Part shown: piece by piece, positions 4,184-28,390 of the stretch | Layout of the letters: each line of letters opens with the position of its first letter | Position numbering within the stretch: the first letter of the stretch is position 1 | Assembly: GCA_964497135.1 (NCBI GenBank) | Contig: CAZCDO010000002.1 | Location: forward strand, 1 to 61,529 | Reading direction: 5' to 3' | From: an uncultured Verrucomicrobiota bacterium | GTDB lineage: Bacteria > Verrucomicrobiota > Kiritimatiellia > CAIKKV01 > CAIJXV01 | DNA length: 61,529 nucleotides | Notes under the pieces: model-generated | Seen by the model: the letters and a program-made list of their open reading frames with translations, nothing else | Told to the model about the DNA's origin: nothing | Database searches by the model: none | Translations under genes and position numbers: made by a program

Positions 4184-6057
4184 ATGTTCTATTGATCACC
4201 CCCCCGATGGTCCAAATCAATTCGCCTTATCCGGCCGTGCCCCGTCTAGCCGCATTTCTCCGCGCCAAAGGAATTGAAGTCGCTCAGGCCGATGCCGCTC
4301 TCCGTCTCGCCCTCCGCCTGTTTTCGCCCGACGGCATCACCCGCATCACCCGCGAACTCGCCCTCAAACCGGCCCGTCTCCAACCGTCTGGTCGCGCCTT
4401 TCTCGCTCAGGCGTCCCACTATCGGGCCACCATCGCCCCCCTCCTCAGGTTCCTTCGCGGGGACGATCCGGCCCTCGCCTATCGCATCGTTAACTCGGAT
4501 TTTTTACCCAAAGGCGCCCGGTTTGACTGGCTCGAAAAGGCCGATGAAGATCCCCTCCTGCCCGCCTTCGGTTCCCTCGGCATCCAGGATCGCGCCCGCT
4601 ACCTCGCAGGCCTCGTGCTGGAAGATCTCACCGACGCCATCCGTGAAAATATTGCGCCGGAATTCGATCTGGCCCGTTACGGGGAACGCCTCGCCCTGTC
4701 CGCCCCGTCCTTCGACCCTCTCGAAGCCGCCCTCTCGGCGAAGCCGAACCTGGTCGATCGGCTGATCGAACGGATCGCGCTCGAACTGGCCCGTCATCAT
4801 CGCCCCGGCCTCGTGGGCTTTTCGATCCCCTTCCCCGGCACGGTCTACGCCGCTTTCCGCATGGCGCATGTTTTTAAGCGACACAATCCCTCGGTCTCCA
4901 TTGTTTTTGGCGGTGGCTATCCCTCGACCGAATGGCGACAGATCTCGGATTCCCGCGTGTTCAAACGCATCGATCACATCGTCCTGGATGATGGCGAGTT
5001 GCCGCTGTTGAATCTCATACGCCGCAGGCTGAAACCAGCGGCCCGTATCCCGCTCATCCGCACTTTTTCCGCCGTTGCATCGACCGTCGTCTATCACGCG
5101 GGTCCTCCGCGCCATGTAAGCCTCAGCCGTCTGCCGACTCCCGATTTCTCCGCTCTCAATCTCCGCGATTACATCCCCTTTCCCACCTCGCTGAATCCCA
5201 TGCTCCGTCTCTGGTCCGATGGACGTTGGAATAAACTCACCCTCGCCCAGGGCTGTTATTGGCATCGCTGTCGATTCTGCGATACCACCCTCGATTATAT
5301 CCGCCGCTATGATCCCGCCCCCATCCCCCGCATCCTGCGCTGGATCGAAGACCTGTGTGAGACCACCGGACAAAACGCCTTCCACTTCGTCGACGAAGCC
5401 GCCCCGCCCGCCCTGCTCGGTCAACTCGCCGATGCCATCCGACATCGGGGCCTGACGCTCTCCTGGTGGGTCAATATTCGCTTCGATCCCGGCTTCACGC
5501 CCGATCTCGTACGGCGGATGTCGGCGGCCGGTTGTATCGCGGTAAGCGGTGGGTTGGAAGCAGCCGAACAACGCTGTAATTCACTTTTGAATAAGGGTTT
5601 TGAACTCGACTCCGCCGTGCGAGTGATCGATCGATTCGCCCAAGTCGGGATACTGACCCACGCCTACCTGATGTACGGCATTCCCACTCAAACCACCCGG
5701 GAAGTCATCGATGCGCTGGAACTGGTCCGCCAACTCTTTGCCGCCGGCGCACTCCATTCGGCCTTCTGGCATCGTTTCGCGCTGACCGTCCACAGTCCCC
5801 TGGCCCAAAGCTGTCACCCCTTGCCCGGCATCACCGTTCTGCCTCCGACGCCGGGGGGATTTTCACGCAACGAATGCGGGTTTGTGGATACGACGGGAAC
5901 CGATTTTGACGCCTTGGGACTGGGACTTCAGCGGGCGTTGTTGAATTATTTACATGGGCTGGAATTGGAACGTCCCCTGCGCGATTGGTTCTCCAACCGG
6001 ATGCCCCGCCCCTCGATCACCCCCGGGACCGTCAGCCGCTGGATCAGACGCCTCTGA
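4180..6057 (+). CDS. B12-binding-domain radical SAM protein (class B-like)
   Basis: 625-aa ORF whose ATG at 4180 overlaps the glycerate-kinase stop (ATGA). The N-terminal region (MNVLLITPPMVQINSPYPAVPRLAAFLRAKGIEV) resembles a cobalamin-binding domain. The CxxxCxxC radical SAM cluster motif is present as CYWHRCRFCD. Confidence 0.8.
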   Translation: MNVLLITPPMVQINSPYPAVPRLAAFLRAKGIEVAQADAALRLALRLFSPDGITRITRELALKPARLQPSGRAFLAQASHYRATIAPLLRFLRGDDPALAYRIVNSDFLPKGARFDWLEKADEDPLLPAFGSLGIQDRARYLAGLVLEDLTDAIRENIAPEFDLARYGERLALSAPSFDPLEAALSAKPNLVDRLIERIALELARHHRPGLVGFSIPFPGTVYAAFRMAHVFKRHNPSVSIVFGGGYPSTEWRQISDSRVFKRIDHIVLDDGELPLLNLIRRRLKPAARIPLIRTFSAVASTVVYHAGPPRHVSLSRLPTPDFSALNLRDYIPFPTSLNPMLRLWSDGRWNKLTLAQGCYWHRCRFCDTTLDYIRRYDPAPIPRILRWIEDLCETTGQNAFHFVDEAAPPALLGQLADAIRHRGLTLSWWVNIRFDPGFTPDLVRRMSAAGCIAVSGGLEAAEQRCNSLLNKGFELDSAVRVIDRFAQVGILTHAYLMYGIPTQTTREVIDALELVRQLFAAGALHSAFWHRFALTVHSPLAQSCHPLPGITVLPPTPGGFSRNECGFVDTTGTDFDALGLGLQRALLNYLHGLELERPLRDWFSNRMPRPSITPGTVSRWIRRL

Positions 6058-6058
6058 A

Positions 6059-7339
6059 TTAAAGAACGGGCTCGCCGGTCTGAATGTCCACCGGCCGGCC
6101 GCCCAGAGCGATGCTGCGATTAGCCGCAATCCCGATCAAGACCGCCTGGATCCCCTCCTCCAAAATAGCCCTTCGCCCCAGGGGATCCGGCTCGTTGGTC
6201 GGGCGAAAAATCATCTGCTGCAATTGAGAATCGGCCCCGCCGTGGGAACCCTCGATCGGCGGAGGGGTGATATCTGATTCAGCCTGGTCGTCATAGGGCG
6301 CGTTATAGGTCAATCGATCATATTGCTGGCCGCTTTGAACCAGGGAGGAATCGCCCCGGCGTTTACGGCCCACCGACCATGCCGTGCTCTGTCTCAAATT
6401 CCATTCGAGACGCCCGTTCGTTCCTTCCAAAGCCACTTGCTGGCCTTCATAGGAGGAATAGGCAACCAGGGAGTAACTGACTTGAACCCCGTTTTCATAG
6501 CTGATCGACAGGTTGGCCGTGTCGGTGATGTCGATTTCCTCGCCGAACACACACTGGTCGCGGAAATATCCGTCCTCCGCTTCCACCTCTTTAAAAAGAC
6601 GGCGTAACAGGTCGTTGTTAAACACATCGGCAAAAAACGTACACTCCCCGGCATGGGCGCATCCCGAACAACGCGCCCCCCGGAACGGCCCATTTTTGCC
6701 ATAAAAAAACAATCCGCCTTGCGCACTGACCCGCCGGGGACGACTGCCGACCCACCAGTTGATCAAATCGAAATGATGGCTGGCCTTCTGCAACAACAAT
6801 CCCCCGCTCTGCCGGAAATCCCGATGCCACCGTCGGAAATAATCGGCCCCGTGGTAACGGTCCAGCAATTCATGGAACGTAATGTGGCGGATATCGCCAA
6901 TCCGGCCCGCCTGGATTTCACGCTTGACCGCTTGGGCGGCGGGAAGAAATCGGGCATTGTGCGTTACCCAAGCGGGACGCGCCGCCCGGCGGACCGCCTC
7001 GCGAATCTGGCAAACCTGCTCAAACGTGGTACAGAGCGGCTTTTCACAATAGACTTCCAGGCCCGCCGCCAACCCGCGCGCCACGTAATCCGCGTGCGTC
7101 GCGTCGGTGGAAGCCACCATCAAGGCATCGGGCTTGGCGACCCGGATCATCTCGTCAAACGAGGCGAAAACGGGAATGGACGTCTTGAGAATTTCGTTGC
7201 ACGCCTGGGCCCGCCCCGGGTTCACATCGAACAAACCCACCGGCTCGGCCACATCGGAAAATTCCCGGATCAGGGGTGACACCCAGGAATAGGTGGATCG
7301 CGTGCCGGTCCCCGCAAATGCAAATCGACGCTGGGTCAT
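6059..7339 (-). CDS. Gfo/Idh/MocA-family oxidoreductase
   Basis: I chose the internal ATG at 7337-7339 (MTQRRFAFAGTGTRS...). It has an N-terminal Rossmann region and a C-terminal Gfo/Idh/MocA alpha/beta region. The longer 7459 start would run through a dispersed repeat. Confidence 0.85.
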   Translation of the reverse strand: MTQRRFAFAGTGTRSTYSWVSPLIREFSDVAEPVGLFDVNPGRAQACNEILKTSIPVFASFDEMIRVAKPDALMVASTDATHADYVARGLAAGLEVYCEKPLCTTFEQVCQIREAVRRAARPAWVTHNARFLPAAQAVKREIQAGRIGDIRHITFHELLDRYHGADYFRRWHRDFRQSGGLLLQKASHHFDLINWWVGSRPRRVSAQGGLFFYGKNGPFRGARCSGCAHAGECTFFADVFNNDLLRRLFKEVEAEDGYFRDQCVFGEEIDITDTANLSISYENGVQVSYSLVAYSSYEGQQVALEGTNGRLEWNLRQSTAWSVGRKRRGDSSLVQSGQQYDRLTYNAPYDDQAESDITPPPIEGSHGGADSQLQQMIFRPTNEPDPLGRRAILEEGIQAVLIGIAANRSIALGGRPVDIQTGEPVL

Positions 7340-7415
7340 ACGCAATAAACTCCTTAATGAACAGGTAAATATCCCAAAACCGGGTACAAGTTGCAATCCG
7401 CTTTTATTTTTCGCG

Positions 7416-7449
7416 AGGGCTCGAACTCCCGTACCCCACAGAAATGCAG
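7416..7449. repeat. 34-bp dispersed direct repeat, copy 1 (agggctcgaactccNgtaNcccacagaaatgcag)
   Basis: Matches 54050-54083 in the same orientation at 32 of 34 positions (hand alignment). It lies about 80-110 nt upstream of the 6059-7339 gene start. Confidence 0.7.
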
Positions 7450-7488
7450 AAAGAGCCATAAATCCTTTCTGGCCAACCTGTTATCCTG

Positions 7489-7517
7489 TCAAAACTCTTT
7501 GAACTGCCGAATCTAGG
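7489..7517. repeat. Left arm of a perfect 29-bp inverted repeat bracketing the giant-protein gene
   Basis: tcaaaactctttgaactgccgaatctagg is the exact reverse complement of 12923-12951. I checked this base by base, and the match breaks on both sides. Confidence 0.9.
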
Positions 7518-7523
7518 ATATTC

Positions 7524-7739
7524 TCACGCAAAGTCGCTGAGTTCGCCAAGGTCCTGATAGCCGCGCGACGAGCCCGCCGCCAGGCTGGCGGGTGCCTCGC
7601 GCGGCTGCTCCTTCGGGACCCCCGCGACTCTTTAAACGGGCTCAGACGCGAGGTGCACGATCACGCCCCGTGAGCGCTCACCACGCGGCTTGGCTTTCCC
7701 CCTCGCGCCCCCCTCTGAGACCTTTGCGACTTTGCGTGA
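7524..7739. repeat. 216-bp GC-rich palindromic (MITE/REP-like) element
   Basis: It has 14-bp perfect terminal inverted repeats: tcacgcaaagtcgc (7524-7537) and gcgactttgcgtga (7726-7739). An internal 10-bp stem pairs agccgcgcga (7559-7568) with tcgcgcggct (7597-7606), with a nested cccgcc/ggcggg stem. The region is non-coding. Confidence 0.6.
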
Positions 7740-7898
7740 AAACAATCCGATCCGGAGAGCGGAGGGAGGATCCGATCCATCCCCGTTTTCACCGGTCCAT
7801 CCAATCTTTTGAATATACTCACCGGTCAAATAATGAGGCTTTTCTCCATTTCCCCGGAATTTGTCCTGCGCCCGATGGGGCGGAGGCGCTCAATCGGC

Positions 7899-7926
7899 TT
7901 GATATTTCGCAGAAATATTGTACAAT
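7899..7926 (+). promoter_or_regulatory. Sigma70-like promoter candidate for the giant-protein gene
   Basis: TTGATA (7899-7904), a 16-nt spacer, then TACAAT (7921-7926). GGAG at 7940-7943 and the ATG at 7953 follow. Confidence 0.4.
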
Positions 7927-7952
7927 TATTCAAATTTACGGAGATAAAATCC

Positions 7953-10900
7953 ATGTTGCTTATCACACCCCTCGGTCGGGCCTGCATGCTTTTAGCATTA
8001 TTATTGATGACCATTACTTTGGGGGTCACACCGACCCAAGCCCAGGAAGATCTGACGACCTGGAATAAACGTATGCCGATTACACTATCCGGCTATACCC
8101 CTCCGGCCGTGGCCGAAATGCTCACCAATTTCCCGGTTCAGGTCGTTTTCAGCAATACTACCGCGGGCGCTGGATTCAGCTATTCCGACTTCCTTGTGCC
8201 GCCCTATGGCGATCTACGGTTTTCCATCGCCTCAAACGGTCCCCCGTTGAATTATGAGGTGGAAACCTGGAATACCAATGGCAAATCCTATGTCTGGGTG
8301 CAGGTTCCCGCGGTCACCGATGCGACGACTAAAATTTGGGCTTTCTGGAGCAAAAGCGCATCGCAGGCGGCTTACACCACCAATGGCGCGACCTGGTCGA
8401 ACGCCTACATCGGCGTCTGGCACATGGGCACCAACACCTCGGCCATGGTCGATGCCAGTCCCACCCGGCGCGGGAGTACTGTGTCCGGAACCATTGCCTC
8501 TGTTCCCGGCATGGCGGGTAATGCCTGTGACTTCACTCCGACCGCCTATTTCGCAACCTCTAATAATTTTCCCGCCTTGTCCGGGGCCTACTCGATCAGC
8601 GCCTGGATCAACATGGACGCCAATGCGAGTAATAACATGGCGATTGCCGGTGCGCACAATGGCAATAATTTCGTTTTAGCGCTGACCGGCGCCGTTCGTC
8701 ATTTATCGTTTTATGCAAGCGGGCCCCTCTGGCGGACCAGCAGCAACACCATCCCCAGTGGCGTTTGGAAACACGTCGCCTATACGCGTTCCGCGACCAC
8801 CGGCGTCTTCTATGTGGATGGCGTACGGGTATTTGCCGTGACGAATGCCGTGGCCAGCCTCGCGGGCGGATCGCTCTATCTTGGGGCCGGGGGGGCAAAT
8901 TGGATAAATCCGTTCGACGGTCAGATCGATGAGGTGCGCATCTCCACGATTGACCGCAGTTCCAACTGGCTGGCCGCCGCCTATCAAAGCCTGGCCAATA
9001 GCGCCTTCGTTTCCTATGGCGATCCCGACGACGGCGGACGGCCGTTGATTTCCAACGGCGTCGCCACGGTCGATTTTACGCCCACCGCCACCCTCAATGG
9101 CACGCTGGCCTCAACCGGTTCCGGCTCGGGTACCAAGGTTCTTGTTTTCTGGGGACCAGCCGATGGCGGCGCGAATTACGGCGGCTGGGCCAATACCAAT
9201 CAATTGGCAGAAGGCACCCCGGTCGGACCGCTCAGCGTCGTGGTCACCGGCAATCTTGGGGCGACCTATTATTATCGCTATTACGCCACCAACTCACTCG
9301 GGGATTCCTGGGCCAATCCGTCCATCCCCTTCACCATCGGATTGCTGCCCGTCACCAAAACCTGGAGCGCCACGGCCGGGTCTGACAGCAATTGGTTCAC
9401 CGACGCCAACTGGACCCCCTCCGGAGCGCCGTCCACCGGGGATGTGGTCTTGATCGACAGTTCGATCTCCACGATCATCAACGTGTTGTTGACCAATTCC
9501 ACCGCACCCCTCGGCGCCCTGATTATCTCCAATCGATATCTAATCAGCTCAAACTGGACCACCGCCATCAATGCCACCAATATCATCCTGCGCAATGCGG
9601 GTGTTTTCACCCTTCCTTCCGCCTTCACCAACAACCAGATGTCGAACCGGGTCTGGGTCGTCTGTTCCAACCTGATCGTGCATACTGGCGCCACCATCAA
9701 CGTGGACGCGCTGGGCTTTGCGAACGGAAATGGACGGGGCGCGGGATCCAGCGGAACGGGCGGCAGTGGCGCAGGATATGGCGGCAAGGGCGGCTTGGGG
9801 GCCTCCGCAACCGCCATCGGCCTGCCCTATGGATCCACCAACGCCCCACTTGATCCGGGGAGCGGTGCGCCGCCGTATCAATTGGCTAATTCGGGACATA
9901 ATGGAGGGGGTGCGGTGCGGATTCAAGCCACGGGCAAGGTCATTATTAATGGGTTGGTATCCGCCAACGCCGGGTTTGTGGCGTCGCCGAATCCTGGAAA
10001 TTATGCCTCGGGCGGATCCGGGGGATCCATTTATATCTCGTGTGATTCTTTCGGTGGCACCACCAACGGCATCATCCGCGCCAATGGCGGAAGCGGCGGA
10101 AGTGTCGGGGGCGGCGGCGGCGGTGGACGGATCGCCGTCGATTTTCAGAATTTAGAGGGAACACCGGGTGTGCGCTGCTCGGCCAACCGCGGCGTCACCG
10201 GATGGCAAACCGTTGATGTCAATGCGCCGGCGGAAGCGTATGCCCCTGAAATGGGCACACTCTGGTTCTCTAATCCGGACCTGATGGACAAAGCGATCAG
10301 CGCATGGTCCGGCAGCGGCTTGAATGCCTTTTACGGATCTATCCATTTCGGCTCGACCAACCAGTGGATGCCCAACAATCTGGTGATCAGCAATTCAACC
10401 CTGGCCATTCCTGGCGGTAACAACTGGACCTTTTCAAATGGCCTGACCCTGGTCTCCGGTGGCCTGATCATCCCCACCAATGCCTCAATCCAATGCCTGG
10501 GTAATTTACTGATGACAAACAGTTCCACGTTGATCGTTTATGGAGGGCGGACCAATACCGCCAATTCGGCCGGAACCCTGTTGACCGTGACCGGCACGTT
10601 ATCGATCGCCACCAACTGCTGGATCTATCCCTTCTCTGAATCGACCAATGGCGGTTCGGTTCGGTTTGTGGTGGGCGGCAACTTGATCGTCCAAGCCGGC
10701 GGCGGTGTCAATGCCTATGGCCGCGGCTTTGCCTATGGCACCGGCTATGGCAAGGGCACCAGCAATGCCGGCGGCGGACATGGCGGCAAAGGGGGTGACG
10801 GCGGAGTCGCGGGCGGCAGCCCCTACGGCGTAACCAATGCGCCCCGGCATCCGGGCAGCGGCGGATCCCGTTACCAAAACTCGTTACAGTACATCACGGC

Positions 10901-12809
10901 CAACAACGGCGGCGGCCTGATCTGGTTCGAGGTCACGGGTGATGCGATCATCGATGGCACCCTGAACGCCAACGGCGCGTTCGGCGCCAGTCCAGCGAAT
11001 TATGGCGCCGGTGGCGCGGGCGGCGGTATTTTTATGTTATGCAACACCTTGACCGGCGCATCATCCGGCAAAATGCTGGCCGATGGCGGAACCGGCGGAA
11101 CTTCGGCCGGCGCCGGCGGCGGCGGGCGGATTTCGGTCGGCGTCGGCCTTTCGGAAACCGACCGGCAATCCATTTTGGCCAATACCGTACCAACGGGTTT
11201 GGACATCTACTATCAGCATGGGACCTATCTCGGCTCGATTTCAGCGGCCACCAACGGAACCGGCCAATATAAATCGCCGCCCAACGGCGCCATGCCCGGC
11301 ACCGCCCAGTTCATGAAAACCGTTGCGGCCAATATCAGGACCGTCACGATCAGCGCCAGTCCGGCCCAGTATGGCACCCCGTATACCAACATTTATGGCG
11401 CCTGGTCCGTCCCCCTGAATACGGTTTTCACCAACACCGTGACCTCGCCCGCCAACGAATTGAACGGCCTGCGCCGGGCCTGCATCGGCTGGCGCCTGAC
11501 CGAGACAGCCAACAGCAACCTCGTCGATGCGCAATCCACCACCCAGGCGGTGTTCGGGGTTTATACCAATTTGACCCTCACCTGGTTCTGGACCAATGAA
11601 TACCAGTTGGCTATCGCTGCCGGACCGTATGGCAGCGTCAACTCCGGCTCCAAGAATGGCTGGTACACCAATGGAACCAGCGTTTCCGGCCTGCTGGCAA
11701 CTCCCGACCCGAATTATTATTTTGCCGGTTGGCTGGGCGGCGATGTGCCCTATGGTCAGGAGACCGTCAATCCGATGACCGTTATTCAGGATCGCCCCCG
11801 GTCCAATATCCTGGCGGTTTTCGCCACAACCAGTGGGACAACCCGCACTTGGACCGGACAGGCGAACTGGCTAAGTCCCACCAACTGGTCGCCGGAAGGT
11901 GTCCCGGGCTCCAATGATGCCATTATTCTCAAATCAGGAACCTCGCTCGTCAGCATCGCATCAACCATCAACAGTCTGCTTATCAGCAATGGTGCGACTC
12001 TTGTTTTCTCGAACTGGAACACCTGCCTGACCGTTGCCGGCCCGGTAACCGTCTGGAGCAATGGCTTCCTCTCGCTCCCAGGGGCTTTCGCCACCAATCA
12101 GATGTCAAACCGGATCTGGATTGCCTGCACGGACTTCACCCTGCACACCGGCGCCATGGTCAATGCCGATGCCTTGGGGTGGGCCAACGATAACGGCCCC
12201 GGACGGGGAATCAGCGCAGTCGGTTCCAGCGGCGCCGGATACGGCGGCAAAGGCGGCAATGGCGGGGGTGGGCCCTTGGGCGGCAATCCCTACGGCTCGA
12301 CGAATGCCCCCACCGATCCCGGCAGTGGCGGTCCGACTTATGGCGGATCGGCGCAATATCTCGGCCACCATGGCGGAGGAGCGATCCTGATCCAGGCATC
12401 CGGAAAAATGACCCTTAATGGAACGGTATCGGCCAATGCTGCACGTTTGACAAGTCCCGCGCCGGTCAATTATGCGGGCGGTGCATCCGGCGGCAGTATC
12501 TTCCTGATTTGCGGCTCGTTGACCGGAGGTACCAATGCCTCCCTGCTCGCAATGGGCGCCAATGGCGGCACCTCCGGCGGCGGCGGTGGCGGGGGACGAG
12601 GCGCAGTCTGGGTCGGGGTTCGCGAGGAATCCCGCAGTCGATATTTGGACGGCATCGAGGGCCGGGTGACCCGTTCTGAAATTGCTCCGGTATCCTATCG
12701 TGGCGTTTTTTCCGTCACGAATGGAAGCGGATGGCAAAGCGGCAACTTGGGGACTTTCTTTTTCTTCTCCGAACCGCCGGATCGGGGCACCATTTTTACA
12801 ATTCGCTGA
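7953..12809 (+). CDS. Giant secreted surface protein: signal peptide, DUF2341, LamG/concanavalin-like domain, and three glycine-rich beta-helix-like modules
   Basis: Internal ATG at 7953 gives a signal peptide (MLLITPLGRACMLLALLLMTITLGVTPTQAQ). The DUF2341-like segment reads WNKRMPITL...DLRFS...YEVETWNTNGKSYVWVQVP. LamG-like motifs are GVWHMG...FDGQIDEVRIS. Three paralogous modules of about 225-250 aa follow. Confidence 0.85.
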   Translation: MLLITPLGRACMLLALLLMTITLGVTPTQAQEDLTTWNKRMPITLSGYTPPAVAEMLTNFPVQVVFSNTTAGAGFSYSDFLVPPYGDLRFSIASNGPPLNYEVETWNTNGKSYVWVQVPAVTDATTKIWAFWSKSASQAAYTTNGATWSNAYIGVWHMGTNTSAMVDASPTRRGSTVSGTIASVPGMAGNACDFTPTAYFATSNNFPALSGAYSISAWINMDANASNNMAIAGAHNGNNFVLALTGAVRHLSFYASGPLWRTSSNTIPSGVWKHVAYTRSATTGVFYVDGVRVFAVTNAVASLAGGSLYLGAGGANWINPFDGQIDEVRISTIDRSSNWLAAAYQSLANSAFVSYGDPDDGGRPLISNGVATVDFTPTATLNGTLASTGSGSGTKVLVFWGPADGGANYGGWANTNQLAEGTPVGPLSVVVTGNLGATYYYRYYATNSLGDSWANPSIPFTIGLLPVTKTWSATAGSDSNWFTDANWTPSGAPSTGDVVLIDSSISTIINVLLTNSTAPLGALIISNRYLISSNWTTAINATNIILRNAGVFTLPSAFTNNQMSNRVWVVCSNLIVHTGATINVDALGFANGNGRGAGSSGTGGSGAGYGGKGGLGASATAIGLPYGSTNAPLDPGSGAPPYQLANSGHNGGGAVRIQATGKVIINGLVSANAGFVASPNPGNYASGGSGGSIYISCDSFGGTTNGIIRANGGSGGSVGGGGGGGRIAVDFQNLEGTPGVRCSANRGVTGWQTVDVNAPAEAYAPEMGTLWFSNPDLMDKAISAWSGSGLNAFYGSIHFGSTNQWMPNNLVISNSTLAIPGGNNWTFSNGLTLVSGGLIIPTNASIQCLGNLLMTNSSTLIVYGGRTNTANSAGTLLTVTGTLSIATNCWIYPFSESTNGGSVRFVVGGNLIVQAGGGVNAYGRGFAYGTGYGKGTSNAGGGHGGKGGDGGVAGGSPYGVTNAPRHPGSGGSRYQNSLQYITANNGGGLIWFEVTGDAIIDGTLNANGAFGASPANYGAGGAGGGIFMLCNTLTGASSGKMLADGGTGGTSAGAGGGGRISVGVGLSETDRQSILANTVPTGLDIYYQHGTYLGSISAATNGTGQYKSPPNGAMPGTAQFMKTVAANIRTVTISASPAQYGTPYTNIYGAWSVPLNTVFTNTVTSPANELNGLRRACIGWRLTETANSNLVDAQSTTQAVFGVYTNLTLTWFWTNEYQLAIAAGPYGSVNSGSKNGWYTNGTSVSGLLATPDPNYYFAGWLGGDVPYGQETVNPMTVIQDRPRSNILAVFATTSGTTRTWTGQANWLSPTNWSPEGVPGSNDAIILKSGTSLVSIASTINSLLISNGATLVFSNWNTCLTVAGPVTVWSNGFLSLPGAFATNQMSNRIWIACTDFTLHTGAMVNADALGWANDNGPGRGISAVGSSGAGYGGKGGNGGGGPLGGNPYGSTNAPTDPGSGGPTYGGSAQYLGHHGGGAILIQASGKMTLNGTVSANAARLTSPAPVNYAGGASGGSIFLICGSLTGGTNASLLAMGANGGTSGGGGGGGRGAVWVGVREESRSRYLDGIEGRVTRSEIAPVSYRGVFSVTNGSGWQSGNLGTFFFFSEPPDRGTIFTIR
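9408..10146 (+). repeat. Intragenic coding repeat, glycine-rich module 1
   Basis: NWTPSGAPSTGDVVLI...NQMSNRVWVVCSNLIVHTGATINVDALGFANGNG...GAGYGGKGG...YGSTNAPLDPGSG...GGGAVRIQATG...GGGGGGGRIAV. It aligns along its whole length with modules 2 and 3. Confidence 0.75.
10478..11148 (+). repeat. Intragenic coding repeat, glycine-rich module 2 (most diverged)
   Basis: ...GGNLIVQAGGGVNAYGRGFAYGTGYGKG...GGHGGKGG...YGVTNAPRHPGSGG...NNGGGLIWFEVTG...GAGGGGRISV. The motif order is the same as in modules 1 and 3. Confidence 0.7.
11883..12620 (+). repeat. Intragenic coding repeat, glycine-rich module 3
   Basis: NWSPEGVPGSNDAIIL...NQMSNRIWIACTDFTLHTGAMVNADALGWANDNG...GAGYGGKGG...YGSTNAPTDPGSGG...GGGAILIQASG...GGGGGGGRGAV. 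This is the closest paralogue of module 1. Confidence 0.75.
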
Positions 12810-12922
12810 AAGCTCTCCAGACGCCTGCCGGACTTTGACGGCACCAAAGACCGGCAGAAGCCGACCAACCACTCTGTTTGTGCCCGCATGCCATTTTTCG
12901 TTGGGCACTGGCCCCGATTCAA

Positions 12923-12951
12923 CCTAGATTCGGCAGTTCAAAGAGTTTTGA
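12923..12951. repeat. Right arm of the perfect 29-bp inverted repeat
   Basis: cctagattcggcagttcaaagagttttga is the exact reverse complement of 7489-7517. It lies 113 nt after the giant gene stop. Confidence 0.9.
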
Positions 12952-12990
12952 ATTGCTCATTTTAGGTTCAACCCCGGCATCCGATTGACA

Positions 12991-13019
12991 TTGACTTGCC
13001 CCGCCCAGGATTCCATACT
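12991..13019 (+). promoter_or_regulatory. Sigma70-like promoter candidate for the CNNM-hpt-hflX operon
   Basis: TTGACT (12991-12996), a 17-nt spacer, then CATACT (13014-13019), about 70 nt upstream of the ATG at 13092. Confidence 0.3.
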
Positions 13020-13091
13020 GCGTTCCTATTATGAATATTTTGGCATCCATTGTTCGACAACGCCTGATGTGTTGTCCCACCTGATTCTGCC

Positions 13092-14363
13092 ATGACCTCC
13101 CTGATTGTCCTTGAAATTACCATTCTCGTTGTGCTTCTGGCCCTATCGGCCTTCTTTTCCTGCGCCGAAACAGCCTTTTTCTCGCTGAATCCCGTTCACA
13201 TCCATCGAATCCGCCGTTCCAAACCTGGCATCGCTCGCGCCATAGAAGCCCGTCTCGCCACCCCCACCCATTTGCTCTCAACCTTGCTGATCGGCAATAC
13301 CCTCGTCAATGTGGCCACCGCCAGTCTGGCCTTCGTTATCGCCGATCAGATGTGGCCCGGATATGGTGCCCAAATCGCAATCCCCACCATGATGCTCATC
13401 ATCATCGTTTTTGGTGAGGTGCTCCCCAAACGCCTCGCGGTCCGCCATCCCGAACCGATCGCGGCTGTGTCCCTGCGTTCGATCAGCATCGCCATCACGC
13501 TCCTCGCCCCCCTGCGAAACCTCCTCGAATGGATCACCCGCTCGCTTGAAGGGTCCTTCAAGCCCCGGCGGAGAGCTCTGTCCGGGGAGGATCTGATGGC
13601 CGTCGTCGATGTGAGCCATACCGAAGGAGTTCTCAATCCTGAGGAACGCGCCATGGTCGACGGCATCCTTCGCCTCGAAAACATCCAAGCACGGGATGTC
13701 ATGACCCCACGGGTCGACCTGATCGGCGTCGACATCAACGGCGATCTGAACGAACAGATCGCCATCGCCCGCAAATATCACTTTCACTACCTGCCCGTTT
13801 TTCGTGACTCGCTGGATCACATCGAAGGGTTCCTTGATGTCCCCAAATTCTTGCTCGCTCCCCAACCTGATCTCAAAACCGCCATGCTCCCCCATTTCTA
13901 TGTCCCCGATACCGCCACCCTCGATTCGCTCCTGACCACCTTCCACCAGCAAAATCGTCGCCTCGCCATCGTCATCGATGAATATGGCGGCACCGCCGGC
14001 ATGATCACCCGCGGCGACATTCTCGATGAAATCGCCGAGTCCGTCAGCAATGAGTTCGGCGGATCGAATCCGGATATCCAACCCCAAGGCATCAATCGCT
14101 GGCTTGTGAACGGCAATACCAGCGTTGAAGAAGTCAATTACGAACTCGACCTGCACCTTGAAGCCGAGGGGGTCGATCGCATCGCCGGTTGGTTTACCTA
14201 TCATACCGAACACGTGCCGCGTATCAACGAAACCCTCGAAATTCAATCTTGCCGCGCGACCGCCAAGGAAGTCAAAAAACACAGGATCACCCGCTTGTTG
14301 ATCGAACGCATTGAACCCAGCGACGAGCCCGCTGACGAGCATGAGCCGGATGTCGAACCATGA
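13092..14363 (+). CDS. Hemolysin/CNNM-family protein (DUF21 transmembrane domain + CBS pair + CorC_HlyC)
   Basis: 423-aa ORF. The DUF21 N-terminus reads LLALSAFFSCAETAFFSL...LLIGNTLVN. A CBS pair and a C-terminal transporter-associated domain follow. Confidence 0.9.
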   Translation: MTSLIVLEITILVVLLALSAFFSCAETAFFSLNPVHIHRIRRSKPGIARAIEARLATPTHLLSTLLIGNTLVNVATASLAFVIADQMWPGYGAQIAIPTMMLIIIVFGEVLPKRLAVRHPEPIAAVSLRSISIAITLLAPLRNLLEWITRSLEGSFKPRRRALSGEDLMAVVDVSHTEGVLNPEERAMVDGILRLENIQARDVMTPRVDLIGVDINGDLNEQIAIARKYHFHYLPVFRDSLDHIEGFLDVPKFLLAPQPDLKTAMLPHFYVPDTATLDSLLTTFHQQNRRLAIVIDEYGGTAGMITRGDILDEIAESVSNEFGGSNPDIQPQGINRWLVNGNTSVEEVNYELDLHLEAEGVDRIAGWFTYHTEHVPRINETLEIQSCRATAKEVKKHRITRLLIERIEPSDEPADEHEPDVEP

Positions 14364-15328
14364 CCTTGATCATCATTCTCATCTTCATCCTTTGCTTCAT
14401 CGGAAACGCCTTTTTTTCCGGCATCGAAACCGGCGTTATCGCCTGCCATCGCATTCGCCTTCGGGCATTGGCCGACAAAGGGATTCGCTCCATGGCGATT
14501 TTGGAGTTTTTCCTGGCCCACCCCGACCGTCTTCTGAGCACCACCCTCGTCGGAACCAATATTTGCACAATCACTCTGTCCGTCCTTGCCGCCCGTTTCG
14601 GTTCAGAGATGGGCTCATGGGGTGAAGTGGTCGCCGATATCCTGATGACCATCGTCATCCTCGTGTTCTGCGAATACATCCCTAAGGCCTGGTTCCAAAG
14701 CGATCCCATCGAACGTGCGGGGCCTTTCGCCTCAACCCTCTGGCTGGCGGCTCTCGTCCTTCGCCCCCTCACCTACGTGATCACCCAAATTACAAATATA
14801 TTCCTGCCCTCCTCCCTTAATCAACCCAGCACCCCCCGTCCCCTCATCTCCCGTGATGAAATTGATCTCCTCGCCATGGAAAGCGCCGACCGCGGCATCC
14901 TTTCTCCCCGTCAGCGCATTATGATCCACCGGGTCGTTGAACTCACCGGAAAAATGGCGGCTCAAGTCATGATCCCCCGTGCGCGGATGGTCGTCGTTCA
15001 ACACTCAACCCCCACCCGTGATTTCCTCAATCTGACCCAGCAATCCCACTTCACCCGCCTTCCCGTCTGGGACGACTCGGCTAAAAAATTCATCGGTATT
15101 GCCAATCTCTTCGATATCCTCGCCCTCGACCCCACCCAATATGAACGACCCATTGCCGATTTCATGCGGCCGCCCCAATTCATCAATGCCACGACCCCCC
15201 TGACTGAAATTTTTCCCCGGATGCGATCCTCCCGTCAACCCATGGGTCTTGTTATCAACCCTCAATCGGAAGTCGTCGGCGTCTTGACCACCGAAGACAT
15301 CCTTAATCATATTGTGGGAACCGCATAA
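14360..15328 (+). CDS. DUF21 + CBS-pair membrane protein (CNNM paralogue lacking the CorC_HlyC domain)
   Basis: 322-aa ORF with an ATGA overlap with the upstream gene. Motifs GNAFFSGIETGVIA and TTLVGTNICTI are present. The protein ends straight after the CBS pair. Confidence 0.85.
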   Translation: MTLIIILIFILCFIGNAFFSGIETGVIACHRIRLRALADKGIRSMAILEFFLAHPDRLLSTTLVGTNICTITLSVLAARFGSEMGSWGEVVADILMTIVILVFCEYIPKAWFQSDPIERAGPFASTLWLAALVLRPLTYVITQITNIFLPSSLNQPSTPRPLISRDEIDLLAMESADRGILSPRQRIMIHRVVELTGKMAAQVMIPRARMVVVQHSTPTRDFLNLTQQSHFTRLPVWDDSAKKFIGIANLFDILALDPTQYERPIADFMRPPQFINATTPLTEIFPRMRSSRQPMGLVINPQSEVVGVLTTEDILNHIVGTA

Positions 15329-15855
15329 TGCCGTTCTTCTCCAATCCCCGGCCATCTCCTTTTCACCGGACACCACCGGCCGGCCTCTGCTGGGTGTGCA
15401 CCCGCCATATCGGTCCCGCCCTCTCCTGCCCCTATTGCGATGCCGCACAACCCTTCCGCTCTGTCCGCATCGCGTTCCGTCTCATCGCCCTCACGCTCGC
15501 CGTCTCCGGTCTCGCTGCCCTGCTCGTCGCCGCCCGACAGCACCCGTCCCTGCCCGCCACCCCCATCGCTCAACTCAACCCCCACGCCCCTTTCACCACA
15601 GTCCGGATTGAAGGGCGTATTGAACGGAGCTCCTCCCGCACCAACCTCGTCCCGATTCACCGGCTGCGCGATGAGTCCGGAACCATCCGGATTTTTATCG
15701 ACCGTGCCATCGGGCCTCATCCGGACTCACGCCTCGGTCCGCTTCGCAATGGGCAGCCCCTCGCCATTCTCGGTTCCGCCGCCCTCGATTCCCGGAATCG
15801 GCTGGTTTTTTACGGATTGAAATGGTCCCGGCCAAACCCTATCACGTCCCCATGA
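15328..15855 (+). CDS. Hypothetical membrane protein with a Cys4 zinc-ribbon-like N-terminus
   Basis: 175-aa ORF overlapping its neighbours by 1 nt and 4 nt. It has CWVCTRHIGPALSCPYCD, one hydrophobic helix (IAFRLIALTLAVSGLAALLVAA), and a beta-rich C-terminal part that could be OB-like. I did not recognise a family. Confidence 0.55.
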   Translation: MPFFSNPRPSPFHRTPPAGLCWVCTRHIGPALSCPYCDAAQPFRSVRIAFRLIALTLAVSGLAALLVAARQHPSLPATPIAQLNPHAPFTTVRIEGRIERSSSRTNLVPIHRLRDESGTIRIFIDRAIGPHPDSRLGPLRNGQPLAILGSAALDSRNRLVFYGLKWSRPNPITSP

Positions 15856-17524: not shown

Positions 17525-18930
17525 CACCCGCGCGCCCACCGGCCGCCCGCCCCATTCTCGCCCTGGATTGCGGCTCCACCAATTTCAAGGCCGCCGTCTT
17601 TTCGCGCGATTTGCATCGCCTCGCCGAAGCCTCCGCTCCACTTCCCTATCTCGCGGAAGAACCGGATCGCACGGAACTTGACCCGACGGAGGTCTGGCAT
17701 TGCGCCCGTTCCGTTCTCGCTGAGTCCTTGCACCAGGCCGGGTTCACTCCCCGGCACCGTCCCCTTCTGGTACTCACCAGCCAGGCCCAGACCTTCGCGC
17801 TTTTCGATCGCGGCTCCGCTTCACCCGTCATGCCCTTCCTGAGTTGGCGCGATGGCCGGGCCCGCGCCGAAGCGGATGAAATTCGCCAACTGCTGGGGAA
17901 TCGTTTTCTGGCCGAAGCCGGTTTCCCGGATTGCATCCCGTACCTGCTGGCTCCCAAACTTCTGCGAGTCCTGCGACAACTGGCCCCCCACCCGCGAGCC
18001 TCCGCCATCCTCAGATCGCTCCCCGGGTTCATCGCCTGGAAATGGGCCGGCCTCAACGCCATCGATCCCAACCTGGCCGCCATGAGTGGACTTTTCTCCA
18101 TCCCCGCCAACGATTGGAATCAAACCCTCCTCGCATTTCTGGGAATTCGCCCCGACCAACTGCCGGCGCTCGTCCCGCTCGGACAACCTCAGAAGGGACT
18201 CATCGCCTCTGCCGACAGTGGACCGGATCCCGAAATCGGGTTCGCCGGCAACGATCAAACCGCCGGGGCCTTCGGCAATGACTGTTCCAGCGAAAACCCT
18301 CTGATCACGCTCGGGACCGCACTGGTCGCCTATCGTCTCGCCGGATCCCAACCCGGCCCCTTTCCCGGCAAAGGGATCTGGGGGCCCTATCCCGGTGGCG
18401 GTTATTACGAACTGGTTACCTCGAATAACGGCTGTGCCGCCCTCGATTGGGCCTGCCGTCGCCTGGCCCCGGACAGTCCCCAAACCCTCCGGCATGACGC
18501 CGAATCGCGGCTCGCGGCAAATCCCCATCCCCACTCGAAACAGCCCTTCTTTTTTCCCCATCGTTCGGGATCACCCAACGCTTGGAGTGGTTCCTCAAAC
18601 CCCCTCGCCGACCTATCCGCCGTGATCGAAGGCATCTCGTTCGAATTAAAACACCTGATGGACACCCACTTTTCAACCCTCCCGCCCTCTGCCCACCTCC
18701 GGGTCTGCGGCGGAGGCAGTCGGTCCGACGTTTGGCTTCAAATGCTCGCTTCCCTGTTCAACCGACCGGTGATCCGTGCTTCCGGCGATGCCTTACTCGG
18801 TGCCGCCCGCATGGTCTCACAAGCCCCCCTCCCGCCCCTTCCTCCCAAATCGACCTTCAGCCCTGACCCGATCAGCCACCCGCTGTATATTCGCCGTTTC
18901 AAAAAATGGGCGACTCTCCGAATCGAGTGA
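17521..18930 (+). CDS. FGGY-family carbohydrate kinase (xylulokinase-like)
   Basis: Internal ATG at 17521 overlaps the hflX stop (ATGA). The N-terminal motif ILALDCGSTNFKAAVF is present, with C-terminal FGGY-like GGGSRSDVWLQMLA. Confidence 0.8.
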   Translation: MTPARPPAARPILALDCGSTNFKAAVFSRDLHRLAEASAPLPYLAEEPDRTELDPTEVWHCARSVLAESLHQAGFTPRHRPLLVLTSQAQTFALFDRGSASPVMPFLSWRDGRARAEADEIRQLLGNRFLAEAGFPDCIPYLLAPKLLRVLRQLAPHPRASAILRSLPGFIAWKWAGLNAIDPNLAAMSGLFSIPANDWNQTLLAFLGIRPDQLPALVPLGQPQKGLIASADSGPDPEIGFAGNDQTAGAFGNDCSSENPLITLGTALVAYRLAGSQPGPFPGKGIWGPYPGGGYYELVTSNNGCAALDWACRRLAPDSPQTLRHDAESRLAANPHPHSKQPFFFPHRSGSPNAWSGSSNPLADLSAVIEGISFELKHLMDTHFSTLPPSAHLRVCGGGSRSDVWLQMLASLFNRPVIRASGDALLGAARMVSQAPLPPLPPKSTFSPDPISHPLYIRRFKKWATLRIE

Positions 18931-18995
18931 CCATCGAATCGACTTGCCGGACACCGCGTGGAAGTCTATTATAGAGGGGTTTTGAGGAATGCCCC

Positions 18996-19415
18996 ATGAA
19001 TCCTGACTGTATTTTTTGCCGCATTGTTGCTGGAACTCTGCCTTCCACTCCGATTTACGAAGATGCCGAGACCCTCGCCTTTCTGGATATCGGACCGGTG
19101 GTCAAGGGCCATACCCTCGTGATCCCCAAAGCCCACTTCGATCCCCTGCCCGCTCTACCCCTGCCTCTGCTCCAGAAGGTGATCGGGGTTGTTCAGAAAA
19201 TCGCCCGGGCCCAGATTGTCGCCTTGAAAGCCGACGGCATCAATATCAGTCAGGCTAATGGCGAGGTGGCCGGTCAGGTCATTCCCCATGTCCATTTCCA
19301 CATCATCCCCCGGTTTACGAGCGATGGCATTCACCGAAATTGGATCCCCCGTGAATACACCGATCGCACCGAGATGAAAACCTTCGCCGACCGGATTATC
19401 GCCGCCTTGGAGTAA
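18996..19415 (+). CDS. HIT-family (histidine triad) protein
   Basis: 139-aa ORF with CIFCRI at the N-terminus and the histidine triad HVHFHIIPR. Confidence 0.9.
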   Translation: MNPDCIFCRIVAGTLPSTPIYEDAETLAFLDIGPVVKGHTLVIPKAHFDPLPALPLPLLQKVIGVVQKIARAQIVALKADGINISQANGEVAGQVIPHVHFHIIPRFTSDGIHRNWIPREYTDRTEMKTFADRIIAALE

Positions 19416-19422
19416 ACCCTGT

Positions 19423-19854
19423 ATGCAACCGACCGATTATTCCGAAGCTTTGCGGGTGATCCTTGAAAAAGATCCCCGGTATGAAGCCGATGCGTATCAT
19501 TTTCTCCGTGAATCCCTCGATTTCACCATCCGTCAGGTCCAGGCCGGCGAAGGAGTCCCCCGCCATATCTCGGGTCAGGAATTACTCAATGGGATCCGTC
19601 TTTTTGCCCTGCAGGAATTCGGCCCCATGGCGTTCACCGTTCTGCGCACCTGGGGAGTCCGGGGCACCGACGATTTCGGGCACATCGTCTTCAACCTCGT
19701 CAATGCCGGCATTCTGGGCAAGACCGAGCAGGATTCCCTTGACGATTTCAAGAATAGCTATGATTTCCAGACCGCCTTCGTCACTCCCTTTCTGCCCGAA
19801 CATCCCCTGCCGGCCCTGCCCGGCGAAAAAAAAACACACCACCCTGACCGTTAA
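19423..19854 (+). CDS. Conserved hypothetical protein (resembles the PVC-restricted Minf_1886-type family)
   Basis: 143-aa ORF. The YEADAYHFLRESLDFT...GQELLNGIRLFALQEFG...TWGV pattern matches my memory of that family. The assignment has not been verified. Confidence 0.55.
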   Translation: MQPTDYSEALRVILEKDPRYEADAYHFLRESLDFTIRQVQAGEGVPRHISGQELLNGIRLFALQEFGPMAFTVLRTWGVRGTDDFGHIVFNLVNAGILGKTEQDSLDDFKNSYDFQTAFVTPFLPEHPLPALPGEKKTHHPDR

Positions 19855-19872
19855 TTTTCCGGAGCCCACCCG

Positions 19873-22525: not shown

Positions 22526-22936
22526 ATGAGCGACACCCCCACCCCCGAAGAACTCAACAAAGCCCTGTTTGTCAATCTCGTCATGATGTTCAGCCAGTCA
22601 ACCCTGGTCGGACTGGGAAAACTGGCCAATCCGATGACCGGAAAGGTTGAATCTCCCAATCTGGAATCGGCCCAGCAAGGCATCGATCTTCTGGTCATGC
22701 TCGATGCGAAAACCCGGGGCAACCTCGATCGCGATGAAGCCCGGTTGCTCAAAGATTCGCTTTCCAACCTTCAGATGAATTTCGTCGAAACCGCGGCGGA
22801 TCTCAAAAAAGCCCCGCCACCCCCGTCCGCCGGATCCACCCCCGCACCGGCCCCGGCACAAGCCCCCGCTCCAGAAACAACCGAGCCCCCTCCGTCCGGT
22901 TCCGAGCCCAAATTTCGCAAGTCCTATGGCGCATGA
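22526..22936 (+). CDS. DUF1844-like small protein
   Basis: 136-aa ORF. LFVNLVMMFSQSTLVGLGKLANPMTGK...DLLVMLDAKTRGNL resembles DUF1844, and the tail is Pro/Ala-rich. Confidence 0.7.
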   Translation: MSDTPTPEELNKALFVNLVMMFSQSTLVGLGKLANPMTGKVESPNLESAQQGIDLLVMLDAKTRGNLDRDEARLLKDSLSNLQMNFVETAADLKKAPPPPSAGSTPAPAPAQAPAPETTEPPPSGSEPKFRKSYGA

Positions 22937-27413: not shown

Positions 27414-27417
27414 GTTG

Positions 27418-28365: not shown

Positions 28366-28390
28366 GTCACCGTCCGGGGCGTAGCCTCGC

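Follow-up and report, generated by a model that had tools for sequence, protein, structure and literature searches.

Several described protein families resemble parts of the protein analyzed here. DUF2341 is known as an N-terminal appendage of some MotA/ExbB-like A subunits of the "generic ion transporter" kind (PMC12505986), and Gly-rich PPII/PGII helical-bundle domains have been described in the snow-flea AFP, phage S16 gp38, ALK/LTK and models of PE_PGRS (PMC13243192). The G8-containing animal proteins CEMIP and TMEM2 have been linked to hyaluronan degradation (PMC12423501), and a literature search for a bacterial G8 domain combined with a beta-helix returned PKHD1/CEMIP papers only. PVC bacteria, Patescibacteria and other uncultivated lineages commonly encode giant Gly-rich surface proteins, nearly all of which lack annotation. 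The protein of 1,618 amino acid residues described in this study is probably a non-enzymatic fibre or adhesin of rod-like shape, exported by Sec and located at the surface or outside the cell.

The gene is located at positions 7953-12809 (+) of the window, the stretch of 61,529 nt that was analyzed, with an ATG at 7953 and a stop codon at 12807-12809. It is a real gene of a lake-water or freshwater PVC-group bacterium; four lake metagenome runs, independent of one another, yielded unitigs that tiled its sequence, mostly with zero mismatches. No identical record was found by exact look-up of the protein. The start at ATG 7953 is backed by a Shine-Dalgarno-like GGAG (7940-7943, +; 9 nt before the ATG), as read from the sequence, and by a promoter-like TTGATA-16-TACAAT (7899-7926, +; 10/12 consensus positions). 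A terminator-like hairpin of 11 pairs with a T-rich tail lies about 120 nt past the stop (12932-12957, +); it and the promoter-like site are consensus matches only. An Rfam search of the upstream intergenic repeat gave no match. Weak evidence of transcription came from metatranscriptome contigs, whose matches were confined to the gene with none in the neighbours; their depth was 1-3, and DNA carry-over is possible.

The N-terminus (aa 1-31; 7953-8045, +) is signal-peptide-like. According to the hydropathy scan, R9 precedes a core at aa 10-25, the sole strongly hydrophobic stretch in the whole protein, and TPTQAQ follows; these features fit the signal peptide of the original prediction and would send the protein through Sec, presumably followed by crossing of the outer membrane. 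A DUF2341 (PF10102) core was detected at aa 85-133 (8205-8351, +) above the gathering cut-off (26.3 bits vs 23.4; model positions 2-51 of 84), and the full domain probably spans about aa 35-170. The LamG, or concanavalin-A-like lectin, domain (Laminin_G_3, PF13385) was matched at aa 198-337 (8544-8963, +) with an E value of 1.4e-21 (77.6 bits vs a cut-off of 27.6; model positions 5-147 of 151). When the PDB was searched with the protein sequence and the module profile, LamG relatives were found, namely 4qvs and 5hon (E 5.6e-8), the latter annotated as an extracellular arabinanase; everything else (VgrG, linker peptides and, at E 0.13, beta-sarcoglycan) was noise. The NCBIfam search of the protein returned nothing apart from the fimbrial model TafC over the LamG region (E 0.028, 13.5 bits vs a cut-off of 410), a match regarded as meaningless. 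The spacer at aa 345-478 (8985-9386, +), which gave zero Pfam matches even at E<=10, looks fn3-like from its pattern (YYYRYYATNSLG..W). Further downstream, aa 1069-1303 (11157-11861, +) comprise a post-B cap-like segment followed by one or more InlB-B-repeat-like Ig spacers; the divergent InlB B-repeat model Flg_new_2 (PF18998) was matched at aa 1217-1290 (11601-11822, +; E 8.8e-7; 29.3 bits vs 23.6; model positions 1-69 of 73), at the same position as in relatives. All three domain calls made originally (DUF2341-like, LamG-like and InlB-B-repeat-like) thus exceed their Pfam cut-offs.

The body of the protein carries three Gly-rich modules, with bounds set by HMM. Module M1 (aa 479-735; 9387-10157, +) begins with a G8-like N-terminal cap (NW..P..GD), followed by NQMSNRVW and a Gly-rich core. 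It is joined by a connector (aa 736-826; 10158-10430, +), whose GTL(W/Y)F.(N/P)D motif is conserved in the consensus of 30 relatives, to module M2 (aa 827-1068; 10431-11156, +), in which a CWIYPFSESTNGGSV motif replaces the G8-like cap and the Gly-rich core is shared. Module M3 (aa 1304-1560; 11862-12632, +) is supported by BLASTP, the AF2 model and a G8 match at aa 1312-1361. As shown by BLASTP with composition correction, M1 and M3 share 48% identity (E 7e-53), M1 and M2 35% (E 5e-19), and M2 and M3 37% (E 3e-21). The three modules are paralogous far beyond chance, and M1 and M3 are the closest pair, as had been predicted; the predicted module coordinates also agreed with the HMM bounds within about 15 aa, one of them (10478) being trivially misplaced by two bases out of frame. 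Two module types are newly distinguished here: M1 and M3 belong to type A, with the G8-like cap, and M2 to type B.

In alignment A1, M1, M2 and M3 all follow the core motif G.GPG.G...GGGYGGKGG...YGS.NAP..PGSGGG...GGGA..I.A.G...I.G.I.ANG, which continues directly as ...GGGSGGSI.I.C....G.....A.GG...GGGGGGRIAV; 18 columns are invariant across 21 sequences. The conserved residues are nearly all Gly, with Y, P, S, A, C and R in addition, and no invariant acidic pair was found in the modules. The Gly content of the rungs is 20-26%, and GGX triplet runs (e.g., GGHGGKGGDGGV and GGKGGNGGG) occur in the protein. The Gly-rich module, which the original prediction could place in no described family, had no match in the Pfam, NCBIfam or PDB sequence entries searched. 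The type-A cap, with the pattern W..W....P..GD.V.I..., aligns over its N-terminal ~65 residues to positions 1-65 of the 124 in the G8 model (PF10162; PKHD1/fibrocystin, CEMIP, TMEM2). For M3 the match had an E value of 2e-4 and 21.7 bits against a cut-off of 22.9, covering positions 2-53 only; for M1 it was sub-threshold (E 0.1). Relatives did exceed the cut-off, and in 25 of the 30 the match reached E<=1e-3, with a best E of 6e-13, again only over positions 1-65. About half of the G8 model is therefore covered, whereas the Gly-rich core has no counterpart in it, and judging from these alignments the N-terminal cap is partially homologous to G8 but not a full member of that family.

When M3 plus the C-terminal tail was modeled by AF2 with an 81-sequence alignment, a confident prediction (pLDDT 94.6, pTM 0.92) was obtained, superseding a single-sequence run of M3 (pLDDT 32.5). 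The model contains successive strands of 3-4 residues, as is typical of beta-helix rungs, together with an ordered Gly-rich stretch of about 70 residues per module to which DSSP assigned no secondary structure. Foldseek against the PDB with the M3 model gave no significant match (best E 0.27), and the designation "beta-helix" consequently rests on the strand pattern of the model. All the weak PDB matches were nonetheless beta-helix proteins (passengers, adhesins, tailspikes and lyases), and together with the short-strand rungs they agree with the beta-helix-like shape guessed earlier. The BFVD matches included some Gly-rich "collagen-like" giant-virus proteins.

The module belongs to a large family. 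An exhaustive HMM search with the module profile returned 13,619 protein clusters (50% identity) at E<=1e-3 and 4,474 at E<=1e-30, from bacteria and some archaea, with up to 12 copies per protein and protein lengths up to 6,562 aa. Full-length architectures were taken from this search, as the word-indexed homolog search listed only proteins below about 575 aa. The typical architecture is SP-(A-B)-InlB-(A-B)-tail; compared with it, the 1,618-aa protein lacks the last B and has gained DUF2341-LamG. The N-termini of the 150 best relatives were mostly signal-peptide-like, and their C-termini were variable, many with the tail motif described below and a few dockerin-like or PEP-CTERM-like. The DUF2341-LamG cassette itself was found in 160 proteins at 31-58% identity and is common in Lentisphaerae, Verrucomicrobiota and Planctomycetes; none of the 30 module-family representatives carried it, and its junction to Gly-rich modules was confirmed only in a 79%-identical ortholog and in one paralog from a related MAG (DUF2341 at 28.0 bits). 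Taken by itself, the gene is an ordinary member of a large family and reveals no new mechanism. The original prediction had overlooked the distinction between types A and B, the partial homology to G8, how very widely the module is distributed and the conserved C-terminal tail.

Based on these results, the body of the protein would consist of three beta-solenoid modules in the order A, B, A, stiffened by their Gly-rich rungs and presumably rod-shaped, with the Ig-like InlB-B-repeat domains spacing the solenoids. The DUF2341-LamG head would be projected by this body, and its most likely target would be a glycan or some other surface. The best reading is still, as first proposed, an adhesin or surface fibre; it is consistent with the signal-like N-terminus, the strong LamG match and the predicted solenoid, and two of the four DUF2341-LamG contexts sampled adjoin glycoside hydrolases or other large surface proteins.

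The C-terminal cap and family-specific tail (aa 1561-1618 plus stop; 12633-12809, +) end in ...GTFFFFSEPPDRGTIFTIR-COOH. The tail motif, GT(V/I)(V/F)(W/F)…PP.G(T/S)hhhhR-COOH, ended 73 of 290 relatives and always stood at the exact C-terminus. A GT(V/I)(V/F)(W/F) strand and PP precede the G(T/S), which is followed by four hydrophobic residues; G is at -7 in 73/73, T/S at -6 and R at -1 in 54/73. Such strict patterning and placement could mean that the GT-hhhh-R peptide is a new sorting or anchoring signal of a self-assembling or anchored fibre, or else a donor strand for insertion into the next subunit or an outer-membrane factor, and the packing of the last ~15 residues (pLDDT 67-79) is indeed predicted with less confidence than that of the rest of the AF2 model. 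We consider this possible but doubtful. Within the window and nine related loci the tail was carried by module proteins only and by no other cargo, so an integral cap fits better than a general sorting signal. Its 4-5 hydrophobic residues are too short for a membrane helix, its final residue can also be Q, N, H, K or Y, and no processing-enzyme gene recurred nearby. With its PP.G(T/S), 4-5 hydrophobic residues and single R, the tail also departs from the PEP-CTERM/exosortase signature, for which NCBIfam gave no match, and no recognized anchor, autotransporter barrel, sortase or exosortase signal was found in the protein. In the fibre reading, the tail probably finishes the solenoid, or else serves to attach the rod, either to the envelope or to a further subunit.

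The original prediction had also allowed for an enzyme-like protein. Modeled on pectate-lyase-fold enzymes and the G8-bearing CEMIP and TMEM2, such a polysaccharide-active enzyme would form a lyase or hydrolase cleft from the G8-like cap and the beta-helix, with LamG as the carbohydrate-binding module. The partial G8 homology, given the tie of G8 proteins to hyaluronan degradation, is in line with it, as are the pectate and alginate lyases and phage tailspike depolymerases among the weak Foldseek matches. Genes for fucosidases, GH16, GH43, GH95 and a pectate-lyase-like protein adjoin cassette relatives. However, zero catalytic domains were detected in the protein or in the 30 relatives, Pfam Beta_helix, Pectate_lyase and GH/PL included; the only companion Pfam domains in those relatives were G8, Flg_new_2, Calx-beta and fn3-like. 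The G8 match is limited to the first half of the model, and the lyase matches in Foldseek were all at E>=6.7 and TM<=0.28. Invariance in the modules is confined to Gly and structural residues and includes no catalytic set of Asp, Glu, Lys or Arg; the D of "NAD", which is partly conserved, is replaced by Y in M2. An enzymatic role is thus unlikely.

Less probable still is that the protein serves a type IV filament, as its tip or as an accessory. This idea draws on an annotation quoted in PMC11809585, on the TafC match and on an N_methyl prepilin-like gene in the context of one relative; against it, TafC scored far below its cut-off, the N-terminus has a classical hydrophobic signal in place of a prepilin-type N-methylation motif, and no pilus genes were present among the ORFs scanned (window 2.5-41.2 kb).

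It had further been suggested that the protein is a client of an ExbBD-type system about 12 kb downstream. The ExbB (32685-33464, -) and ExbD (32267-32836, -) genes are real and lie in the same window, but a distance of 12 kb reaches only the first gene of the minus-strand block; the pair is 19.5 kb from the stop codon and on the opposite strand. Between them lie one ORF that gave no Pfam match and six annotated housekeeping genes (two CNNM, a phosphoribosyltransferase, an HflX-type GTPase, an FGGY kinase and an M16 peptidase). DUF2341 does occur as an appendage of some MotA/ExbB-like subunits, yet the ExbB of the window carries none. The paralog lies 2.4 kb from a MotA_ExbB/ExbD pair, although this pair belongs to a four-gene set (MotA_ExbB, ExbD, TonB_C-like and PD40 propeller) that reads as Tol-Pal (TolQ-TolR-TolA-like-TolB) and lies beyond MntP and IlvC, which are encoded on the other strand. 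The 79%-identical ortholog keeps the upstream neighbour, has lost the downstream synteny, and has no ExbBD within 10 kb. Neither MotA_ExbB nor ExbD appeared in any of the five contexts of relatives sampled (0/5), and an all-against-all comparison of flanking ORFs across nine related loci yielded no recurrent family except shadow ORFs and the upstream GFO/IDH/MocA oxidoreductase. PF01618 was absent from all 120 cassette relatives listed, which is weak evidence because these were all below about 550 aa and DUF2341-MotA fusions could escape. A partnership with the TonB-type ExbB/ExbD system of the window is hence weakly refuted and highly improbable, and this tempting link was removed as unsupported.

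What is new is a searchable definition of one recurrent building block, with its A and B module types, its canonical (A-B)-Ig-(A-B)-tail architecture, its conserved C-terminal motif and a confidently predicted fold without a solved relative. With this definition, thousands of "hypothetical proteins" could be annotated, and the family becomes a candidate for structural work and for experiments on how these bacteria attach to particles or partners. More tentatively, the module may be a widespread uncurated extracellular fold of beta-helix rungs and polyglycine-II-like segments, with the tail of the PVC subfamily as a new anchoring, sorting or subunit-joining signal; we hold this combination to be rather unlikely.

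Compared with known systems, the protein recalls the chlamydial Pmp proteins in its PVC origin, its Gly-rich sequence and its one GGA(I/V) per type-A module. The Pmp resemblance noted originally does not extend further, as just two GGA[ILV] and three FxxN motifs occur in 1,618 aa, the autotransporter barrel is absent, and zero Chlam_PMP matches appeared in the Pfam search even at E<=10. RTX and PATR repeats were dropped, having no Pfam or NCBIfam match. The PPII/PGII bundles share with the modules the GGX triplet runs and, in the AF2 model, a high-confidence segment without alpha or beta assignment, whereas the rest of the predicted module is clearly beta-stranded; the bundle proteins were absent from the sequence matches and from the Foldseek PDB list, and PE_PGRS was set aside, its likeness lying solely in the GGX runs. 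With the DUF2341-LamG cassette proteins of Lentisphaerae, Verrucomicrobiota and Planctomycetes, the protein shares the same two-domain N-terminal unit. The right-handed beta-helix surface proteins, among them the autotransporter and TPS passengers EspC, Hbp, EspP and HMW1, Lactobacillus SRRP and the Caldicellulosiruptor tapirins, represent the only kind of fold returned by Foldseek, at insignificant scores in every case (E>=0.27, TM<=0.25). No Pfam or NCBIfam translocator or TPS match of type V secretion was found, and the protein differs from autotransporter and TPS passengers in having neither a beta-barrel translocator nor a TPS domain. Its rungs are exceptionally Gly-rich, and the ordered ~70-residue stretch without DSSP strands sets it further apart. 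Like the beta-helix surface proteins, it is nevertheless large and is predicted to be a secreted, elongated solenoid of short-strand rungs with a presumed adhesive role.

The gene under study runs on the + strand from an ATG at 7953 to a stop codon at 12807-12809, and it encodes a protein of 1,618 amino acid residues. A GGAG sequence was located 9 nt before the ATG (+); a promoter-like TTGATA-16-TACAAT (7899-7926, +) and a terminator-like hairpin (12932-12957, +), both found by consensus match only, would be compatible with a single-gene unit. At the N-terminus, R9 is followed by hydrophobic residues 10-25, the sole strongly hydrophobic stretch in the protein, and then by TPTQAQ, an arrangement that, as read from the sequence, looks like a Sec signal peptide. 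Pfam assigned the protein to DUF2341 (aa 85-133, 26.3 bits vs a cut-off of 23.4), Laminin_G_3 (aa 198-337, E 1.4e-21) and Flg_new_2, a divergent InlB B-repeat (aa 1217-1290, E 8.8e-7). The locus was tiled by mostly mismatch-free unitigs in four lake or freshwater metagenome runs from four studies, with graph breaks confined to near-identical poly-Gly-coding stretches, and an assembly artefact is ruled out.

In four metagenome runs, the assembler word depth was 113-171 over intergenic positions 7454-7680 upstream of the gene and 34-59 over 7681-7907, compared with ~5-10 in the gene. Because these depths lie far above that of the gene, the stretch 7454-7907 includes an element that is either multi-copy or shared widely. 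There, GCGACTTTGCGTGA(A/G)AA occurs as inverted copies at 7521-7540 (-) and 7723-7742 (+), with a chance expectation of 0.01, and no Rfam match was found in the stretch. Short metatranscriptome contigs from three runs of the same lake study matched 8150-12688 inside the gene, most at 99% identity or more, and none matched the 2.4 kb upstream or 2.7 kb downstream (5500-7500 and 12848-15500 compared). These matches suggest that the gene is transcribed in situ, at a very low depth and with DNA carry-over possible; their confinement to the gene hints, at that same very low depth, at relatively high transcription.

The original prediction of three paralogous Gly-rich modules was borne out, with boundaries in agreement. 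M1 (aa 479-735), M2 (aa 827-1068) and M3 (aa 1304-1560) are true paralogs by composition-corrected BLASTP, and M1 and M3, as proposed, form the closest pair (48% identity, E 7e-53, vs 35%, E 5e-19, for M1-M2 and 37%, E 3e-21, for M2-M3), since both are of type A and M2 is of type B. Type A begins with a G8-like NW..P..GD.V cap and carries an …FT.NQMSNR(V/I)W… motif; type B is without the cap and has …SW.YP(Y/F)S..TNGGS… in its place. When the three modules were aligned with 18 homologous modules, 18 columns were invariant, nearly all Gly, plus S155 and R246, and the consensus was G.GPG.G…GGGYGGKGG…YGS.NAP..PGSGGG…GGG…IEA.G.V…GT..ANG…GGGGSGGGI…C..F.G…A.GG…GGGGGGGRIAV. The Gly-rich core matched no Pfam model even at E<=10 and no NCBIfam model, and neither the protein nor a 21-sequence profile retrieved a sequence relative of the module from the PDB; the module thus stands outside described families, as had been anticipated. 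The sole signal was a partial G8 match at the starts of M3 and M1, which fell just below threshold (21.7 bits vs 22.9, model positions 2-53). The same region passed the G8 cut-off in 25 of 30 relatives (best E 6e-13), always limited to the first ~65 of 124 model positions, and the protein is only partially G8-like.

The structure of M3 plus the C-terminal tail was predicted by AlphaFold2 from an 81-row alignment with a mean pLDDT of 94.6 and a pTM of 0.92; M3 from its single sequence alone gave a pLDDT of 32.5. Residues 26-107 were modelled as repeated strands of 3-4 residues, the pattern by which beta-helix rungs are recognised. The segment richest in Gly, residues 108-179 with GYGGKGGNGGGG, had a pLDDT of 92-98 without any DSSP strand or helix, and residues 180-257 formed longer strand pairs with a period of ~35 residues (GGGAILIQASGKMTLNGTVSANA… / GGSIFLICGSLTGG…LLAMGANGG… / GGGGRGAVWVGV). 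Next come a short helix and three strands, and the terminal GTIFTIR was of lower confidence (pLDDT 67-79). Foldseek gave no PDB match at E<=0.001 (best E 0.27, every TM-score <=0.28); nearly all of its 25 weak matches were beta-helix or beta-solenoid proteins, and they included EspC, Hbp, EspP, SepA, HMW1, SRRP, tapirins, an ice-binding protein, pectate and alginate lyases and phage tailspikes. A comparison with predicted viral structures gave five matches at E<=1e-3 (best TM 0.45), to Gly-rich prasinovirus, pandoravirus and orpheovirus proteins. The rung-like strands, together with the nature of the weak PDB matches, support the predicted beta-helix-like fold class, as originally proposed, without a close solved relative.

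An exhaustive HMMER search with the module profile against 1.84 billion representative proteins returned 13,619 module clusters at E<=1e-3, 9,032 at E<=1e-10 and 4,474 at E<=1e-30, with up to 12 copies per protein and lengths up to 6,562 aa. Named sources, all annotated 'hypothetical protein', include Lentisphaerae, Verrucomicrobia, Chthonomonadales, Anaerolineae, Patescibacteria, Desulfobacterota, Bdellovibrionia and one archaeon; the family is very widespread yet missing from Pfam, NCBIfam and the PDB. The consensus of 30 close relatives (1,300-2,050 aa; alignment A3, with members such as P0144, P0157, P0170 and P0186) was a signal peptide, (A-connector-B), InlB-like Ig domain(s), (A-connector-B) and a C-terminal tail. 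Their remaining Pfam domains were G8, Flg_new_2, Calx-beta and fn3-like only, and neither a catalytic domain nor DUF2341 was found in them. Set against this canonical order, the present protein is an architectural variant that lost the final B module and gained the N-terminal DUF2341-LamG head. The DUF2341-LamG cassette is itself common, with 160 relatives (31-58% identity), most of them from Lentisphaerae and Verrucomicrobiota. The module family multiplies and clusters within genomes: MAG Loclat_bin-05825 has four or more paralogs, each 1,600-2,160 aa long (loci L001, L003, L004 and L006), two of them ~17 kb apart on one contig, and a Verrucomicrobiota MAG (locus L005) holds three module ORFs inside 13 kb.

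On the best-supported reading, the protein is probably a non-enzymatic rod that is exported by the Sec route and is surface-bound or extracellular; it would serve this freshwater PVC-group bacterium as an adhesin or surface fibre. An A-B-A beta-solenoid body with Ig-like domains as spacers would present the lectin-like DUF2341-LamG head, which would bind glycans or particles.

The tail (12633-12806, +), not part of the original observation, follows the pattern GT(V/I)(V/F)(W/F)…PP.G(T/S)hhhhR-COOH, which ends 73 of 290 module-family relatives (including P0001, P0002, P0014, P0020, P0141 and P0144). It comprises G-T-(V/I)-(V/F)-(W/F/V) at positions -18 to -14, P-P at -10 and -9, G at -7 (73/73), T or S at -6 (58/73), four hydrophobic residues at -5 to -2, and R at -1 (54/73; else Q, N, H, Y or W). 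The motif is strictly C-terminal. Its length falls short of a membrane helix, and its pattern does not match PEP-CTERM, so the protein is not PEP-CTERM cargo. Because the tail was found on module proteins only (in the window and nine related genomic loci), a family-specific integral C-cap is the simplest reading; an unrecognised anchoring, sorting or subunit-joining signal is possible. Tail-mediated anchoring or polymerisation, which is compatible with an adhesin or fibre and favoured by the strong patterning, seems unlikely given that the restriction to module proteins fits a C-cap.

A polysaccharide-active enzyme, to which the weak lyase and tailspike matches and the partial G8 match could point, is less likely still, as the 30 close relatives carry no catalytic Pfam domain. 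A type IV filament accessory is very improbable.

Least probable is the original proposal of an ExbBD client. ExbB (32685-33464, -) and ExbD (32267-32836, -) are genuine genes, encoded on the opposite strand 19.5 kb past the end of the gene; two CNNM/CorC genes, a phosphoribosyltransferase, an HflX-type GTPase, an FGGY kinase and an M16 peptidase stand in between. A 672-aa ORF (22926-24944, +) between the peptidase and the ExbBD block had no Pfam match at E<=1e-3. Also encoded in the minus-strand block (24993-38151) are a multi-TPR protein (1,114 aa), a Beta_helix + FG-GAP protein (822 aa), a 368-aa protein without a match and one of 1,273 aa for which the match was weak and squalene-hopene-cyclase-C-like. 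Next to the block is a divergent OmpA-family protein that contains a TSP3 repeat, and the block looks like a separate envelope system. In Loclat_bin-05825, the closest genome match (79% identity over residues 17-1618), the upstream GFO/IDH/MocA gene is kept (80% identity), none of the window's downstream genes is present at the ortholog locus, and ExbBD is absent within 10 kb. The 2,037-aa paralog of the same MAG at L004, also a DUF2341-LamG-module protein, has at a distance of 2.4 kb a MotA_ExbB-ExbD-TonB_C-PD40 set (18455-21734), which we read by domain order as Tol-Pal (TolQ-TolR-TolA-like-TolB). Since MntP and IlvC intervene on the other strand, this adjacency is probably due to chance, and it could mimic a DUF2341-ExbB link. 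Five more contexts were examined, four around DUF2341-LamG relatives and one around a module protein, and none had MotA_ExbB or ExbD within ±10 kb; glycoside hydrolases occurred in two of the DUF2341-LamG contexts and other large surface-type proteins in three. No flanking gene family recurred across related loci. In the published DUF2341-MotA/ExbB link, the domains are fused in certain 'generic ion transporter' A subunits (PMC12505986), and such a fusion gives no evidence of a client role. Owing to the distance, strand, intervening genes, lost synteny and lack of recurrent linkage, the ExbBD proposal is unsupported, and the most intriguing functional inference falls away.

These findings can serve annotation and structural genomics; a new mechanism was not demonstrated. 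The module's ordered, non-strand Gly stretch and GGX runs recall polyglycine-II bundle domains (PMC13243192), and no solved PGII protein was among the structures retrieved for the module. The protein is neither a Pmp nor an autotransporter; it belongs, as a variant, with the large beta-solenoid surface proteins.
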